From: Candidatus Omnitrophota bacterium
Lineage (GTDB): Bacteria; Omnitrophota; Gorgyraeia; Zapsychrales; Fredricksoniimonadaceae
Direction of reading: 5' to 3'
Length of the DNA: 64,000 nt
Assembly (NCBI GenBank): GCA_903908245.1
Contig: CAIVRE010000002.1
Span: 90,761-154,760, forward strand
Part shown: piece by piece, positions 4,710 to 11,592 of the stretch
How positions within the stretch are numbered: the first letter of the stretch is position 1
How the letters are laid out: every line of letters starts with the position of its first letter
Position numbers and translations under genes: made by a program
The notes under the pieces: generated by a model
Database searches by the model: none
Told to the model about the DNA's origin: nothing
What the model saw: the letters and a program-made list of their open reading frames with translations, nothing else

Positions 4710-7649
4710 TCAGCGGACTGTCGATAACCGCCAGCGCCTCAAACCCATCCAGAACACAAGAGCCAATACCAAAAGCAGCCACGAAGGTGCAGGGGAATTG
4801 ACGCTATTCTGAGGCACCTCGGGCGTTTTCTCAAAATCAAACACATCGGACGCCGCCATCATCTGCTTCTCTTTATCCTTTAAACCCCTCCATTGAGCAT
4901 CCCGTTCAACCACCATATACGCGGTTGCCGGTGTCAGGACCCCCAGCTTCCGGCTTTGTTCAACCAGCCAGGGCTTTTCCTTATCCATTAAACGAACACT
5001 GGCCATAGCCGCCTCATTGCGAAAGATCAATTCCAGCCCATGTTCATAACCCTCATCATTCAAAAGGGATCCCGTCTTCTCCAATGGCTTGAACCCTCCC
5101 GCACCAGGATCATAGACCTCTACCCGGCCGGTATCGAGCCTGTCCGTATACCCACGCGCATCGGATGACACCGCAGAAACCCTTGATCCCTGCCGCAAAA
5201 GAACAACCCTGTCACTGGCGGAAGCTTCCGATGCGCTCCACAAAGGACGCTGTTCCCTGCCTTTATTCGGTGCAATGATCAAATACTGGCCTGCCTCGGG
5301 AATATACCTCTTAAAAACATCCATTTTCTCGGAAAAAGGCAATACATTCTGAGGCGCCCCCGTTAAAACAACAAACAGCGGATATTCCTGCCAGCAATCC
5401 GAGCCCGCACGGTCCAGGCACGTTTCTTTATATTCCAATACCGCATTCTGGATAACCCTTTGCAGGTCCAGGGACCCGCGTAAAGGCAAAGACACCCGCC
5501 CAAACGCCCTTCCCAGGTACGCGGCATCACGCACATCAACAAACCCCGAAGACAATGCCCGCGCCTCAAAATTGGCTTCCGTCAATTTCGCCTTACGGAT
5601 ACCGGGATATTGCGCGGCAACGCTCCGGATCAGCGCTTCATACGCTGCCGAGCCCATCGAAGCCTGGGCAGAACGGTCAATAATAAAATGAAAGTACGGC
5701 TTTCGCGCCAAAGCTGGCAACCGGGCGATCACGCCCCCGGGCAGGATCAGCGCAGATGCGCCGACAACGCCCGCCGAAGGAGCGTCTGCTGACGCCGCCG
5801 TCAGGACAACAGGCCGGCCATTGAGCCTGACCGCAGGATAAAAATGCTCGGGGTAAAGAAAATCGATCTCGACCTGCCGCGTCTCATTCTGCAGGACAGG
5901 GAACACCTTCAATTCCACCCGGGTCGGCGACTGATAGGCCAGAAGGCCGGGATCCCGCCGGGTATTCTTGATCTGGTCATACACCCACATGGCCGTCTTC
6001 TTTTCAAAGATCCGGCCCGGCACCATTGCATCCCCAACCTTCAGGCGAAAACCGGTGATCAACACGCCCGGAGGAAGGTCGATCGTCTGATAAAATTCCC
6101 GCGGCCCGGAAAATTGCCATGCATATTGATCTTCTTTAACTGCCGTCTCGGCCTTCGGGGCCCATGCCATCGATAAACTCAAGGTGCTCTGAACAAGATC
6201 CGAAGACGGCTTAACAGATGCCACGCCTTCTGCAACAATGTTCACCTCGCGCTCATGCGGCGCCCGCCACCCTGTACCGGCCCTCATGCGCGAGCTGCGC
6301 CCCCAATAACTGCTGACTGAAACTTCCGGCAATTCTTCACCGGAGAACAATTTGTAAACATAGCTGATCTTCTCGTCAGGCAAGACCATACCTTCAAAAA
6401 CGATCGCATTATAAAGATCGGACAAATACGGGAGCCCGTCACCCTCTTTGAATTGCTTGAGCGCCCTCATGGTCCGCGCCACATCTTGCGCCGCGCCAGG
6501 GAACTTCAGGTCCCCGTGGCCTTCCGATGAATACACATATTCCAGCGCCTGCTTCAGGACGATCTTGTCTTTCACGACCTGGACACCAAAGAACAAAGGA
6601 AGGACCAGGAGCCCTGCACAAACAAACATGACGGCTCTGCGCAGCCCGAGTCCGGCTACTGCGGCTTTCCAGTCGTCCATAAGCGCTTTCGTATGGACCA
6701 GGAACAACGCAACGGGGATCCAGGCCAGAAAGCCGAACCCGAAAAACAACACCGCCAGAATACCCAACGGCAGAAAAGGCAGGACGATCAGAAAAAAATA
6801 CGCCGTAACAAGAAAAGTGACACTGCGCAGGAATAAGCCCCAGCCCACCGATCCGGGATTTCGCAATGGCGGAAGGATCATCAGGATCCCGTTGATAGAC
6901 ACCAGAACGAACAGCAATATCCCTTCAGGCCCCGTCCACACCTGGAACACCTTTATAAAAAGAGAGATCATTGCCGGGCCGGACGCCGCCAGAAGAATAC
7001 GCAGGATGGAATTCTCCAATGCTCCTTTAACAACAAGGCTTTGATAGGTTGCCATCACAAAACGGACGAACAACTGCATGAAGAACAAACACACAGCCGC
7101 AAAAATAAAGAACGGAACAAATGAGAATGCGGCATACCTGTCCCCGAAGACCATGACCGTCCCAAGCAGCAACATCGGCATCAGAAAGATCCCGCCAAGG
7201 ATAAAAACCGGCAAACGGCCTTCATCGATCTCGAGCTTATGACAGGAGATCCTGACCACCCCGTAAAATATCCCGGGCATCATGAACGTGGCCTGGGACA
7301 GAAAAAGATCGCCCTGGTCGATGATCCAGCGGTCAATATTCATGGGGACAAGCTTCATCCCGCCATTCATAAAGATATAAAGATAAATAATATTCAAGCA
7401 CATCAGGAGCACGCTCATTTTCGCGGGGACCACGGCACCCCGCGAAAAACTCTGCCACCACAGCGCCACCGCAAGGCCGATCATCGCGGCCTCACAGGCA
7501 CCGACAGCCAGCCAACTTTCCCGGGCCTCCGGCCCGACCAGCCAGCACGCGTGGCAATTGATCAAAAGAAGGACGACCTGCGGCAGGATAAAAACCCAGA
7601 TCAACGCGGCCGGCGTCCCGAAAGACTCGGGCAGATTTGGCTTATTCAT
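4710..7649 (-). CDS. large polytopic membrane protein with a C-terminal sorting-signal-like anchor; possible exosortase-system VIT/vWA-domain protein
   Basis: 979 aa. About 350 aa of N-terminal hydrophobic helices, then about 600 aa of soluble domain. The C-terminus reads ...NSVNSPAPSWLLLVLALVFWMGLRRWRLSTVR, a Pro-rich motif, one TM helix and an Arg cluster, the tripartite architecture of PEP-CTERM-type signals. The start overlaps the stop of the upstream exosortase-like gene by 8 bp. The VIT/vWA assignment is from memory of the XrtN-system VIT family and is not motif-verified here. Confidence 0.55.
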   Translation of the reverse strand: MNKPNLPESFGTPAALIWVFILPQVVLLLINCHACWLVGPEARESWLAVGACEAAMIGLAVALWWQSFSRGAVVPAKMSVLLMCLNIIYLYIFMNGGMKLVPMNIDRWIIDQGDLFLSQATFMMPGIFYGVVRISCHKLEIDEGRLPVFILGGIFLMPMLLLGTVMVFGDRYAAFSFVPFFIFAAVCLFFMQLFVRFVMATYQSLVVKGALENSILRILLAASGPAMISLFIKVFQVWTGPEGILLFVLVSINGILMILPPLRNPGSVGWGLFLRSVTFLVTAYFFLIVLPFLPLGILAVLFFGFGFLAWIPVALFLVHTKALMDDWKAAVAGLGLRRAVMFVCAGLLVLPLFFGVQVVKDKIVLKQALEYVYSSEGHGDLKFPGAAQDVARTMRALKQFKEGDGLPYLSDLYNAIVFEGMVLPDEKISYVYKLFSGEELPEVSVSSYWGRSSRMRAGTGWRAPHEREVNIVAEGVASVKPSSDLVQSTLSLSMAWAPKAETAVKEDQYAWQFSGPREFYQTIDLPPGVLITGFRLKVGDAMVPGRIFEKKTAMWVYDQIKNTRRDPGLLAYQSPTRVELKVFPVLQNETRQVEIDFLYPEHFYPAVRLNGRPVVLTAASADAPSAGVVGASALILPGGVIARLPALARKPYFHFIIDRSAQASMGSAAYEALIRSVAAQYPGIRKAKLTEANFEARALSSGFVDVRDAAYLGRAFGRVSLPLRGSLDLQRVIQNAVLEYKETCLDRAGSDCWQEYPLFVVLTGAPQNVLPFSEKMDVFKRYIPEAGQYLIIAPNKGREQRPLWSASEASASDRVVLLRQGSRVSAVSSDARGYTDRLDTGRVEVYDPGAGGFKPLEKTGSLLNDEGYEHGLELIFRNEAAMASVRLMDKEKPWLVEQSRKLGVLTPATAYMVVERDAQWRGLKDKEKQMMAASDVFDFEKTPEVPQNSVNSPAPSWLLLVLALVFWMGLRRWRLSTVR

Positions 7650-8208
7650 AAAAGAGCTCCCTTTCCCAATAAATTATTACAGCGCACAGGACGGGAAGGA
7701 ACACCATCACTCCCACCCCCAAATGAAGCAACCCCTGGAACTTTTCCAGGCTCAAGGCTTGAGCCCAGGCATGAACATAATATGCACCCACGATCCGGAT
7801 GCCATTAAGAAGTATCGTTAAAAGGTACGCTCCCGCCACTGTCGCCGCAACCGCGGCCCATTTAAAGACAGGCCGGGACTGGTACCTGGAAAGGATATGC
7901 ACAACAGAAACAGAAACGATCAAAGAAAAGAACCCGAACGCGTCACACTCCCGTGTCACGCGGACCAGCGTCCCCGAAACCGGGATCACCCAACTCCCGT
8001 CGATCAGGGAAGGCTTCTGCCAGAAGAACAAACCCGCAATATATGCCGCCGGCTGCCCCCATAAAAAGTGGATCCATTGCGCCACTACACGATGGCCGGA
8101 CCACAATAAATTTGTGAACGCGAACAACCCGACCGCCTGCAGGACGATCAGGTCATTCTTGACAACACTATGCTGAACCTTTGTCGAACGATCGCTCATA
8201 AACGGCAC
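7642..8208 (-). CDS. short exosortase/archaeosortase-family protein (possible XrtN-type)
   Basis: 188 aa, entirely hydrophobic helices. Has a Cys in a TM context (VTRECDAFGFF) and an N-x-x-R motif (LLNGIRIVGAYY), resembling the conserved Cys/Asn/Arg of exosortases. Translationally coupled to the 979-aa protein downstream and 4 bp from the small TM gene upstream. Confidence 0.5.
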   Translation of the reverse strand: MPFMSDRSTKVQHSVVKNDLIVLQAVGLFAFTNLLWSGHRVVAQWIHFLWGQPAAYIAGLFFWQKPSLIDGSWVIPVSGTLVRVTRECDAFGFFSLIVSVSVVHILSRYQSRPVFKWAAVAATVAGAYLLTILLNGIRIVGAYYVHAWAQALSLEKFQGLLHLGVGVMVFLPVLCAVIIYWERELFYE

Positions 8209-8211
8209 CGC

Positions 8212-8418
8212 TCACTTCTGCATGGTCACGTAAGTATAAGTAAAAAGCCCCCCTGTGATCATCACGGCTCCGGCAATAAAATAAACGCCGGAAACAGCGA
8301 TCAGCTGAAGGTCCCAGCCTATCGCGTACGGAACGACCAGAAGCGAACCGAACGCTCCCAGCGTGAACACCGTCAATGCAACGGCCTTACACATTGTTTT
8401 GATAGCTTCGGGTGTCAT
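8212..8418 (-). CDS. small 2-TM membrane protein, unknown function
   Basis: 68 aa with two hydrophobic helices (AVALTVFTLGAFGSLLVV; VSGVYFIAGAVMITGGLF). Ends 4 bp before the exosortase-like gene. Confidence 0.5.
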   Translation of the reverse strand: MTPEAIKTMCKAVALTVFTLGAFGSLLVVPYAIGWDLQLIAVSGVYFIAGAVMITGGLFTYTYVTMQK

Positions 8419-8504
8419 AACAACCTCCTGTTTTAAACTGTCTCCATCGATCCATCGCCGCTCTTCCCGGGGGCGGCCTCTCCCGTCTGATCTTCCCTAA
8501 AACC

Positions 8505-9827
8505 CTACACCTCCTCCCGGCACCACCGATGATACGACATAGCGGCGAAAAAGATCCCGGCCGCGGCCACTGACCCTGTATGCAACAGGATCGTCCGTAC
8601 GTCATAAGCCGGGACACCCCAGAACTCGGCCAGCGCATAAGCGCCATACAACACAATAAGGCTCACCGCCATCCGCTGGTCCTTCCATGTAGCCACATAG
8701 GCCAGCAAAGCAAGGGTCATCTGCGTGAACACGCCGGTAAAGACCAGATAGGCCCAGAACTTCGACGAGTAAATGAACGGCAATCCCCACAGCACCGCCG
8801 GAATGATCCCGAAAAGGACCGATGTCATGACCCACGCCGCCAGAAGCGCTGCCGCCAGCAGGACGCCCCATTGCACGGCCACCCCTTCCCGGCGCACGGG
8901 ACGCAGCAGGGCGTAATCCCGGAACGCCACGGTACGGTAATAAAAACACAGCATCACCGTCAGCGGAGCCGCGACAAAAACGAGGAAATTGACATACGGC
9001 CGCGCATAGAATCCCGTCGGGCCAGCGATAAAAAGAACATAAGCCATGAACACCGCGGCCCCCGCCAGCAGCATCCCCCCGATGCCAGGGACCGCCTCAT
9101 CTTCCACATACGCCCAATGAAAAGCCTGGCCGATAAGGTTTTTCTGTTGCGCGTAAAGCGGGGCCTTCCGGTACACATAAGGGCGGCTTGATGTGCGGGT
9201 CCTGGCGCGGTGCAGCGGCCAGGACAGAACATACGCGTATTCCACCATGCCCTCGTTCAACATCGCCAGGCGCCACAGGAACCCCGTGAGCAACAGGACC
9301 GCCACCGCCGTCAACCCGTAGAACGCGGCATCCGACACGACCAGAAGCTGCAAAAGGTCCCGTGAATGCCCGACGATAAAAAGCAGGGCCCCGTAACCGA
9401 TGAAGAGGATCATCCTCCCGGAAATATACGCGATCACGATCGTGGCAAGAAAGGTCCCCAGGCACAGCACGATCCAGGCCCACTTGACCCGCTCCCCGAC
9501 AAGGTCCGTCAACCCCGACAGCCACCAGGCCGTCACAAAAGCCACGGCCAGCCACAAGAAACTCCCGACGGCAATATGCGCTGCACGGTACCCCGGGACC
9601 AGCCGCGCCATGGGAGACGCCATCTGGCGCTTGATCATGACCCCGAACTGAAAGGCCAGCGTCATCCAGAGACAAAGCCAGACGGTGGTCAGCTCGTCGA
9701 ACAGGTCCCACTGCTTTCCGGCCATGAACACCTTGCCCAGCGCAAGAACAGCAACAAACCCGAGGACCAGGGCCATCCAAAGCCAGCGCTCCCGATACAA
9801 CATGAGAACAGCCTGTATCCTTTTCAT
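8505..9827 (-). CDS. polytopic permease partner of the ABC ATPase (ABC-2-like), no recognisable family
   Basis: 440 aa with roughly 10-12 hydrophobic segments. Its start overlaps the ATPase stop (ATGA-type coupling). Confidence 0.55.
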   Translation of the reverse strand: MKRIQAVLMLYRERWLWMALVLGFVAVLALGKVFMAGKQWDLFDELTTVWLCLWMTLAFQFGVMIKRQMASPMARLVPGYRAAHIAVGSFLWLAVAFVTAWWLSGLTDLVGERVKWAWIVLCLGTFLATIVIAYISGRMILFIGYGALLFIVGHSRDLLQLLVVSDAAFYGLTAVAVLLLTGFLWRLAMLNEGMVEYAYVLSWPLHRARTRTSSRPYVYRKAPLYAQQKNLIGQAFHWAYVEDEAVPGIGGMLLAGAAVFMAYVLFIAGPTGFYARPYVNFLVFVAAPLTVMLCFYYRTVAFRDYALLRPVRREGVAVQWGVLLAAALLAAWVMTSVLFGIIPAVLWGLPFIYSSKFWAYLVFTGVFTQMTLALLAYVATWKDQRMAVSLIVLYGAYALAEFWGVPAYDVRTILLHTGSVAAAGIFFAAMSYHRWCREEV

Positions 9828-10699
9828 CGGCTCATCTCCAGAAAGATCTCTTCCAGGTTCAGATCCTCGACGTCCACCTTTACGCCCAGCGCCTTCTCAA
9901 GGCCCTGACGACGGCCCTCGTTATAACCGCGGACGGTCAATATGGCCTGCTGTCCACGGACATAACTGTTGACCAGCCCCTCCATCACCAATGGCGGCAG
10001 GGCTCCGGTAGGGCAATGCACACGGATACGCTTGACCTCGTCTTTGAGCTCATCAAGCCCGCCGCAGAAATCGATCTTGCCGGACCGCAGGACCGCCACC
10101 GTATCGGCCACACGCTCAAGGTCGGAGGTGATATGCGTCGAGAAGAAAATGGTGCACTTGCGCTCGGAAACAACTTCCAGGATGGTCTTAAGGAACTCCC
10201 GCCGCGCCACCGGGTCCAGGCTTGCCACCGGCTCGTCAAAAACCAAAAGTTCCGGCTCATGGCCCAGGGCAAGAATAATAAGGAGCTTTTGCATCTCTCC
10301 CTCTGAAAGGACCTCAACGCGCGTGGCAAGGTCCAGATCCCACTCCCGCACAAGCCTGTCCACCAGTGCAGCATTCCAATGCGGATAAAAGGACGCCGTA
10401 TACTCGATAAGCCTGCCCGCCTGAAGCCACGGATAAGGCCGATACCCCTGGGGGACATAACCGATCAACGCCTTGGCCTTGTTGGACAGGTCCCATGATC
10501 CCTCGCCGAAAACCGTCATCTTCCCCGAATCCGTCTTGAGCAAGCCCAGGACACATTTAAGCAGCGTCGTCTTGCCGGCCCCGTTCTTTCCCAAAAGGCC
10601 GATCACAGACCCTTCGGGCACATCCAGAAAGACTCCGTTGAGGACCGCCTTGCGGCCATAAGCCTTTTTGACATCTTCACAATGGATAACGTTAGACAT
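9824..10699 (-). CDS. ABC transporter ATP-binding protein
   Basis: Walker A GLLGKNGAGKTTLLK, signature LSEGEMQKLLIILAL, Walker B LLVFDEPVASLD. Confidence 0.9.
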   Translation of the reverse strand: MSNVIHCEDVKKAYGRKAVLNGVFLDVPEGSVIGLLGKNGAGKTTLLKCVLGLLKTDSGKMTVFGEGSWDLSNKAKALIGYVPQGYRPYPWLQAGRLIEYTASFYPHWNAALVDRLVREWDLDLATRVEVLSEGEMQKLLIILALGHEPELLVFDEPVASLDPVARREFLKTILEVVSERKCTIFFSTHITSDLERVADTVAVLRSGKIDFCGGLDELKDEVKRIRVHCPTGALPPLVMEGLVNSYVRGQQAILTVRGYNEGRRQGLEKALGVKVDVEDLNLEEIFLEMSR

Positions 10700-11096
10700 G
10701 ATGATCTTCCTCCCAGATATTTTTCAATTTCGTCAGGACGCTCTCCTGGTCAAGGGACAATTGCCGCGCGCTGTTAACCACTTCCCTTATAAGCAGGATC
10801 AACCGGTCCTGGCTCATATCAGGAATAGTAATATTTTCCGCTTTGGCCGGTATCCGCATCCCCTGGCCACGCACGAATTCAATAATGCCGCTCTTCTCTA
10901 ATAAAGAATACGCCTTTGACACGGTCATGGGATTGACTTCAAGGCTCTTGGACACATCCCGGATCGAAGGCAGGAATTCACCGGCAGTGAACTTGCCCAT
11001 CGCAATTCCGATCTTGACCTGGTCATAGATCTGCCGGTAGATCGGCACGCCCGATGTTGGATTGATCTGAAAGTATAACCTGGCATTAATATCCAT
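10692..11096 (-). CDS. GntR-family transcriptional regulator, short YtrA-like subtype
   Basis: 134 aa. N-terminal GntR winged HTH (LPSIRDVSKSLEVNPMTVSKAYSLLEKSGIIEFVRGQGMRI). Short C-terminus and first gene of an ABC operon, as in the YtrA subfamily. Confidence 0.85.
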   Translation of the reverse strand: MDINARLYFQINPTSGVPIYRQIYDQVKIGIAMGKFTAGEFLPSIRDVSKSLEVNPMTVSKAYSLLEKSGIIEFVRGQGMRIPAKAENITIPDMSQDRLILLIREVVNSARQLSLDQESVLTKLKNIWEEDHHV

Positions 11097-11329
11097 ATTC
11101 CTCCTCGTATGATCTTATACTGCATCAGTAGTATAATACACAGATACACCAATGTCAATACTGAACAACATAATTCATTAATATCTGTTAATTATTGCAG
11201 TATATTGACTTAAGATAATATTATTACTATCGATAAATATTTTCTTACGAACATTTACATATGTGCATTATTCATATGATACAGTACTTATCGTAGCAAT
11301 TGTATGCATTAGCGAGCGGGTGACGCCAG

Positions 11330-11535: not shown

Positions 11536-11569
11536 ATAAAAAAGCCCGTGTCAAAAGATCGACACGGGC
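11536..11569 (-). terminator. rho-independent terminator of smc
   Basis: Stem gcccgtgtc / gacacgggc (11544-11552 / 11561-11569) with an 8-nt loop. On the minus strand a TTTTTTATT run follows. Lies 23 nt after the smc stop. Confidence 0.75.
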
Positions 11570-11592
11570 TTGAATACACCAAGGAAACTTTA

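Follow-up and report, generated by a model that had tools for sequence, protein, structure and literature searches.

We analyzed a 64,000-nucleotide stretch of DNA from a Candidatus Omnitrophota bacterium (assembly GCA_903908245.1, contig CAIVRE010000002.1, positions 90,761 to 154,760 of the forward strand; hereafter the window) and found that the C-terminal tail of a 979-residue membrane protein encoded in it is likely the sorting signal of an MSEP-CTERM protein, with the adjacent XrtK-like exosortase homolog acting as its dedicated, one-to-one processing enzyme. The substrate gene occupies positions 4710..7649 and the enzyme gene positions 7642..8199; both, like the other window genes and motifs given with coordinates here, lie on the reverse strand (-). 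This interpretation draws on a family match, a conserved tail geometry, the adjacency of the two genes, the retention of putative catalytic residues in the enzyme, and the swapping of the tail where the enzyme gene is absent. The signal is not of a new kind: its family is already curated, and the window has the form seen outside Bacteroidota, [TSA]P[AE]P. The system is known from NCBIfam models and, as far as our literature search shows, is experimentally unstudied.

The C-terminal end of the 979-residue product is PQNSVNSPAPSWLLLVLALVFWMGLRRWRLSTVR, and its terminal residues as read from the translated open reading frame (ORF) are DFEKTPEVPQNSVNSPAPSWLLLVLALVFWMGLRRWRLSTVR. Re-translation places a signature motif, S-P-A-P-S, at residues 952-956 (4782..4796; also delineated by the ortholog tail alignment), followed by a hydrophobic membrane-spanning segment of 14 residues, WLLLVLALVFWMGL (residues 957-970; 4740..4781), which is apparent from hydropathy and forms a helix in an AlphaFold2 model. 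The protein closes with a basic cluster, RRWRLSTVR (residues 971-979; 4713..4739), presumably located in the cytoplasm, and the stop codon lies at 4710..4712. A first-pass annotation of the window had described this tail as a variant S-P-A-P-S signature followed by a transmembrane segment and an RRWR cluster; its string and coordinates proved correct, and the string it quoted as the last 30 residues counts 32. Among the 191 ORFs of at least 80 amino acids in the window, only the substrate gene joins a motif of this type to a hydrophobic stretch near the C terminus and a cluster of basic residues, and no second protein with the same tail was found in that set. A single tail-bearing protein fits a one-to-one dedicated system rather than one serving many substrates.

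We compared the whole protein and its isolated tail with curated family models. The protein matches TIGR04286, the NCBIfam model for "MSEP-CTERM sorting domain-containing protein," with 340.8 bits against a cutoff of 150, and residues 13-972 align end to end with profile positions 6-914 of 920; score and alignment together place it in this family. The literal M-S-E-P signature of TIGR04286 is not found: the tripartite layout is present, with S-P-A-P as the signature, and only the final proline is common to both. A large protein collection contained 29 homologs; the 25 full-length sequences included in our alignment are 23-62% identical to the window protein. Several Omnitrophota homologs already carry the NCBI name [quoted passage not shown] The first-pass annotation had likened the layout of the tail to PEP-CTERM/PGF-CTERM-type signals and had suggested a comparison with the PEP-CTERM, VPEID-CTERM and related models. 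The generic PEP_CTERM model (TIGR02595) gave 14.3 bits, close to its cutoff of 16, with tail residues 16-37 on profile positions 2-23. The match begins at the first proline of P-A-P (tail residue 16), so that P-A-P would fall on the P-E-P of the model; both the score and the P-A-P found where P-E-P is expected leave the tail outside TIGR02595. The MYXO-CTERM model gave 15.2 bits (cutoff 20). Apart from these two sub-threshold matches, a tail scan with E values up to 10 produced no match to VPEID-CTERM, VPLPA-CTERM, PID-CTERM, IPTL-CTERM or others, and a Pfam scan of the tail returned no PEP-CTERM or other sorting-domain match. No named variant model was passed.

The conservation of the signal was followed in 80 loci from species-representative genomes of Omnitrophota, Verrucomicrobiota, Lentisphaerae/Victivallales, Kiritimatiellae, Planctomycetota, Gammaproteobacteria and Bacteroidota, which yielded 75 full-length orthologs for a tail alignment. 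The signature reads MSEP in 22 of them, all Bacteroidota-type, TPAP in 16, TPEP in 7, APAP in 6, SPAP in 5 and APEP in 4, the remainder having rarer forms; in Omnitrophota and the Planctomycetes-Verrucomicrobia-Chlamydiae (PVC) phyla it corresponds to [TSA]P[AE]P. Position 4 is proline in all 75 sequences. Position 2 is proline in 48 and serine in 26, and position 3 is glutamate in 41 and alanine in 28. Counted from the final signature proline, the first Lys/Arg follows at a median distance of 15 residues (interquartile range 15-15), and at 15 in the window protein. An invariant proline, a fixed spacing and a basic cluster together imply that motif, distance and cluster are all under constraint. 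In terms of sequence, MSEP is then the Bacteroidota form only, and the family-wide signature is x-[PS]-[EA]-P, located a fixed 15 residues before the basic cluster. The occurrence of P-A-P in 28 of the 75 orthologs might mean that the glutamate of PEP is dispensable for recognition in this branch, a speculative idea that we consider improbable when taken jointly with the acceptor-transfer proposal made at the end of this article.

At residues 938-951, FDFEKTPEVPQNSVN (4797..4838), the linker of the window protein and its clade (P0002 and P0003 included) is longer by ~9 residues (KTPEVPQNSVN), which lie between a conserved acidic LEFEE-like block and the motif. T-P-E-V-P within this insertion resembles a degenerate second copy of the signature.

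We next consider the adjacent enzyme gene. Its longest ORF (7642..8208) starts with a GTG at 8208 and encodes 188 residues; the start is most likely the ATG at 8199, which gives a 185-residue protein identical to P0030. The 3' end of the gene, with its stop codon, overlaps the ATG of the substrate gene by 8 nucleotides, ATGAATAA, as read from the sequence. The protein scores 28.0 bits with the exosortase/archaeosortase signature TIGR04178 (cutoff 23; residues 82-182) and so carries the family signature. With the XrtK model TIGR04287 it reaches 32.9 bits, below the cutoff of 55, and this is still the best specific exosortase model. No Pfam match was found at an E value of 0.01 or better, and a PDB sequence search with the enzyme gave no match up to E 10, hence no solved relative. 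An iterated profile search over all ORFs in the loci collected 74 partner proteins, and 76 sequences were aligned. Cys, Arg and His form what is suspected to be the exosortase/archaeosortase family's catalytic triad (10.1101/2023.06.07.544157). All three are present in the window enzyme: Cys88 (7945..7947; numbering of the 188-residue ORF), Arg138 of N135-x-x-R138 (7795..7797) and His162 of H162-x-x-x-G166 (7723..7725). The codons of Cys88, Arg138 and His162, the putative catalytic residues, were verified, and each of the five positions Cys88, Asn135, Arg138, His162 and Gly166 shows 97% conservation among the 76 partners.

The low XrtK score is shared by the partner enzymes from outside Bacteroidota. 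Bacteroidota partners score 160-175 bits with the XrtK model, whereas each of the six others tested (from Gammaproteobacteria, Planctomycetota, Verrucomicrobia, Kiritimatiellae and Omnitrophota) reaches 26-44 bits. In this respect the window enzyme is a typical member of the non-Bacteroidota branch, which lies beyond the reach of the curated XrtK model. The 185-residue protein occupies the XrtK position and is predicted to work like XrtK, though the curated model would not name it so. We also searched for covariation between enzyme and signal. Among 38 non-Bacteroidota pairs, mutual information with motif position 3 peaks at the enzyme column of His146 (7771..7773): arginine accompanies a glutamate substrate in 6 pairs, and His, Ala or Asp accompanies an alanine substrate in 22. 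Judged by eye, glutamate seems to go with a non-basic residue in Bacteroidota (Gln) and Gammaproteobacteria (His), off this pattern. The covariation may serve as a weak lead only, as it is confounded by phylogeny.

Gene linkage supports a functional pair. In 78 of the 80 loci there was enough upstream sequence for an adjacency survey, and the enzyme gene lies directly upstream of the substrate gene on the same strand in 66 of these, across at least six phyla; in four more it is found at 0.7-3.3 kb from the substrate gene. When all flanking ORFs were clustered, the enzyme emerged as the only neighbor family common across phyla. Besides Bacteroidota, the pair is present in Omnitrophota, Verrucomicrobiota, Lentisphaerota, Kiritimatiellota, Planctomycetota and Gammaproteobacteria. 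In the window, the 8-nucleotide overlap puts the substrate directly next to a short dedicated exosortase, and the 64-kb window contains no other exosortase and no other PEP-CTERM tail.

Eight loci have no exosortase gene within ~6 kb. The orthologs in four of them (L010, L014, L015 and L016, from Chthoniobacterales, an uncultured bacterium, Lentisphaerae and Verrucomicrobiota) end in tails that pass the PEP_CTERM model with 20.4-25.7 bits against the cutoff of 16. PEP-CTERM tails in the absence of an adjacent short exosortase suggest a hand-over to a general exosortase in those genomes. Two Hymenobacter orthologs (L078, tail at ~6930-7061, and L082, tail at ~8700-8835) instead pass the PID_CTERM model NF046080 with 29.2 and 45.5 bits (cutoff 26), and no exosortase-like gene was found within either locus. 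The orthologs in the remaining two (L039 and L043) run off their contigs, which leaves the tails outside the sequence. Signal swapping among orthologs, and consecutive enzyme and target genes in one-to-one systems, have been put forward as criteria for real sorting signals (10.1101/2023.06.07.544157). Both are observed for this pair.

The architecture of the substrate was examined in an AlphaFold2 model computed from 25 sequences, with a mean predicted local distance difference test score (pLDDT) of 78.8 and a predicted template modeling score (pTM) of 0.76. In this model the membrane domain is helical and extends to about residue 374; residues ~465-940 fold into a beta-rich and an alpha/beta domain, the linker at 943-956 is modeled with low confidence, and residues 957-978 make up a terminal helix. 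Hydropathy peaks, the modeled helices and the alternation of loop charges delimit the N-terminal membrane domain to residues ~14-358 (6576..7610), which we infer to consist of 11 transmembrane helices with a cytoplasmic N terminus. The Lys+Arg counts of the loops alternate between rich and poor over 25 homologs, a pattern that agrees with 11 transmembrane helices between an inside N terminus and an outside ectodomain, the final helix leading back so that the Arg cluster of the tail lies inside; in the same homologs the C-terminal tail holds on average 4.2 Lys+Arg versus 0.7 Asp+Glu. No Pfam domain was found in the membrane domain, and a Foldseek search of it against the PDB returned only insignificant G-protein-coupled receptor/rhodopsin matches (E ~1), so that no fold was assigned. 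The ectodomain (~465-940) resembles inter-alpha-inhibitor heavy chains (ITIH), with a VIT domain and a von Willebrand A (vWA)-like domain. The VIT domain covers residues 521-596 (5862..6089; Pfam PF08487, 37.7 bits, cutoff 26.5). Foldseek gave heavy chain 1, ITIH1 (PDB 6FPY), as the best match with an E value of 3.4e-10, then weaker matches to von Willebrand A domains, and a profile search of PDB sequences again found ITIH1, weakly (E 0.057).

Two further observations concern this gene. In the vWA-like domain (5676..5684, residues 656-658 and nearby), Asp-658 and Ser-660 are the only invariant residues of the D-x-S-x-S metal-site motif, and the second serine position is glutamine in the window protein; the metal site may thus be non-canonical or lost. 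A sibling metagenome contig in ERZ1426628, which encodes an identical exosortase protein, has its substrate gene called as two ORFs of 688 and 281 residues (7461-9527 and 9554-10399); in this related population the split is due to a frameshift, a stop or a faulty assembly.

We propose the following mechanism for the pair. The tail helix would span the cytoplasmic membrane, with the Arg-rich cluster as a stop-transfer signal on the cytoplasmic side. The VIT/vWA ectodomain would then sit on the outer face of this membrane, and a flexible linker would hold S-P-A-P-S at the outer leaflet. The translationally coupled enzyme could cut at or next to the motif using Cys88, Arg138 and His162, by analogy with exosortases and archaeosortases through a cysteine acyl-intermediate. 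The helix and the basic tail would be removed, and the new C terminus would either be released by hydrolysis or, again by analogy, be transferred to an acceptor in the envelope. The constancy of the 15-residue spacing hints at a ruler that measures from the cytoplasmic face to the active site. As the ~11 N-terminal helices would keep the protein anchored, processing would not release it but would set one end of the ectodomain free or fasten that end anew.

Several points weigh against this interpretation. The tail lacks the glutamate of PEP and MSEP and falls just short of the PEP_CTERM cutoff, and the enzyme stays under the XrtK cutoff, its orthology with Bacteroidota XrtK being argued from context and not from the model. 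The topology is derived from the positive-inside rule and helix counting only, and the helix at 112-136 is not strongly hydrophobic. Removal of the tail would not "sort" the protein in the usual sense, because its ~11 N-terminal helices stay in the membrane. Finally, our literature search brought up no paper on MSEP-CTERM proteins or on XrtK, and hence no report of cleavage involving either.

The alternative that best withstands these data is that the C-terminal helix is a plain last membrane anchor that is never cleaved, with the exosortase homolog acting elsewhere or as a non-catalytic partner. A twelfth transmembrane helix is plausible beside the ~11 existing ones, the glutamate of PEP is absent from the window tail, and the literature holds no processing data that we could find. 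Yet a mere anchor leaves unexplained why an invariant proline sits at a fixed 15 residues from the basic cluster, why the tail is exchanged for a PEP-CTERM or PID-CTERM signal exactly where the enzyme gene is missing, and why Cys, Arg and His are retained in 97% of the partner enzymes. On these three grounds we rejected an uncleaved anchor, which we regard as unlikely.

Slightly less likely still is the possibility that the tail is processed by a general XrtA-type exosortase encoded elsewhere, with the adjacent small protein acting only as an accessory. Orthologs without the adjacent gene bear canonical PEP-CTERM tails that are presumably served by such a general enzyme, and the window tail is itself near the PEP_CTERM cutoff (14.3 versus 16 bits). 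The tails found beside the adjacent gene, however, are of a divergent form that mostly stays under the generic model, the adjacent protein holds the full putative catalytic set and passes the family signature, and the 64-kb window offers neither a second exosortase nor a PEP-CTERM tail. That the resemblance to a sorting signal arose by chance in a single sequence has nothing beyond the shortness of the motif in its favor and is refuted, to the point of being negligible, by the full-length curated-model match that includes the tail, by conservation in 75 orthologs from at least six phyla and by the fixed proline-to-basic spacing.

We thus return to a dedicated signal-enzyme pair as the likely explanation. 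The first-pass annotation had anticipated its elements: that the tail is a tripartite variant sorting signal is borne out by a motif conserved in 75 orthologs; that a dedicated short sortase is encoded next door agrees with the TIGR04178 match and with XrtK as the best specific model, which identify the neighbor as an exosortase homolog; and that the two form a processing pair is supported by the family match, the motif conservation and the adjacency in 66 of 78 loci, with the processing itself being a prediction.

The pair is located between smc and the cvpA-dnaG-rpoD cluster, and in the window it is preceded by further genes. These are a GntR regulator (10692..11096) and an ABC ATPase (9824..10699), both assigned by family match, a 440-residue polytopic membrane protein without a family match (8505..9827) and a 68-residue small hydrophobic protein (8212..8418), also without a family match. 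The cassette of GntR regulator, ABC ATPase and 440-residue protein (8505..11096) is found upstream only in Omnitrophota-type loci; synteny with Omnitrophota-type relatives extends to the regulator and the ATPase in 6 loci and to the 440- and 68-residue proteins in 7. Homologs of the 68-residue protein occur in L004, L005, L006, L008, L009, L011 and L017, which are Omnitrophota-type loci only. In L004 its gene (6380-6589) lies downstream of the substrate gene and not upstream of the enzyme gene, and given this shifted position the small protein appears to move together with the pair. A terminator-like hairpin at 11571..11542 precedes a promoter-like site at 11158..11130 (11 of 12 matches), both being consensus matches only, and the upstream cassette is probably co-transcribed with the pair. 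The best NCBIfam matches of the regulator and the ATPase are PmtR/PmtA-like, both far under the cutoff, and the cassette looks like a candidate GntR-controlled ABC exporter with an unclassified permease.

Divergence across this region is uneven. We compared the window (4710..11096) with L006 (497-7039), the closest locus by its flanking genes: identity is 81% for the GntR regulator, 75% for the ABC ATPase and 57% for the 440-residue protein, and falls to 35% for the 68-residue protein, 34% for the exosortase and 32% for the MSEP-type protein, which are no closer than in other Omnitrophota. This mosaic divergence indicates either that the envelope module evolves fast or that it was replaced as a cassette.

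On its own the window gene is a matter of routine annotation, as a model already in place would let the NCBI pipeline name the protein. Its significance lies in the wider family: the name-giving MSEP motif is lineage-specific and not family-wide, and the curated XrtK model misses partner enzymes outside Bacteroidota. The orthologs constitute a natural experiment in signal swapping, with dedicated, PEP-CTERM and PID-CTERM tails on one protein family, and a pair of one enzyme and one substrate lends itself well to finding out what exosortases attach to the C terminus after cleavage.

We compared the window pair with known systems. It is most fully described by MSEP-CTERM/XrtK (TIGR04286/TIGR04287), with which it shares the complete substrate architecture, the gene order with its overlap, the tripartite tail geometry and a short enzyme (~175-200 residues) having the same Cys, N-x-x-R and H-x-x-x-G positions. 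It differs in its signature, S-P-A-P instead of M-S-E-P (Pro for Ser and Ala for Glu), in an enzyme that scores 32.9 bits where the XrtK cutoff is 55, in the ~9 extra linker residues before the motif in the window clade, and in the Omnitrophota-specific upstream cassette of GntR regulator, ABC ATPase, 440-residue and 68-residue proteins. With PEP-CTERM/exosortase (XrtA, EpsH) the pair has in common a Pro-x-Pro signature, a hydrophobic helix, an Arg cluster and the enzyme superfamily (TIGR04178), and some orthologs of the window protein end in true PEP-CTERM tails. In contrast to that system, in which one enzyme serves many substrates, the window contains a one-to-one pair; its enzyme has ~185 residues and fewer helices than XrtA-type enzymes (the XrtA model has 261 positions), its tail lacks the glutamate and is sub-threshold for TIGR02595, and its substrate is a polytopic membrane protein rather than a secreted protein with a signal peptide. 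The VIT protein of the XrtN system (TIGR04477) is likewise exosortase-sorted and contains a VIT domain, and residues 506-598 of the window protein match it locally with 55.8 bits. This is far under the cutoff of 250, the VIT region alone matches, and the partner enzyme is not XrtN: the sole partner that matches the XrtN model, from a verrucomicrobial locus (L020), does so with 17 bits against a cutoff of 200.

The best structural match of the ectodomain, ITIH1 (6FPY), shares the VIT plus vWA-type fold at ~11% identity, with TM-scores of 0.21-0.30 that are low because only part of the model aligns. Unlike the window protein, ITIH1 is eukaryotic and secreted and has no membrane domain or exosortase, and the window protein keeps only D658-x-S660 of the D-x-S-x-S motif. 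ITIH heavy chains are synthesized with extensions at the C terminus; once these are lost, the C termini are ester-linked to a glycosaminoglycan (PMC7170535). The parallel to the C-terminal processing predicted here is an analogy and not an established mechanistic homology. With the best structural relative being linked to glycosaminoglycan, transfer to a glycan is nonetheless an attractive hypothesis, and the XrtK-like enzyme might conceivably join the new C terminus of the VIT/vWA domain to an envelope glycan or lipid, a proposal that, together with the glutamate-free recognition raised above, we hold to be a long shot. If it were true, the product would bridge the cytoplasmic membrane, through its 11-helix domain, and an outer envelope polymer, and would represent a bacterial counterpart of heavy-chain-to-glycosaminoglycan coupling.

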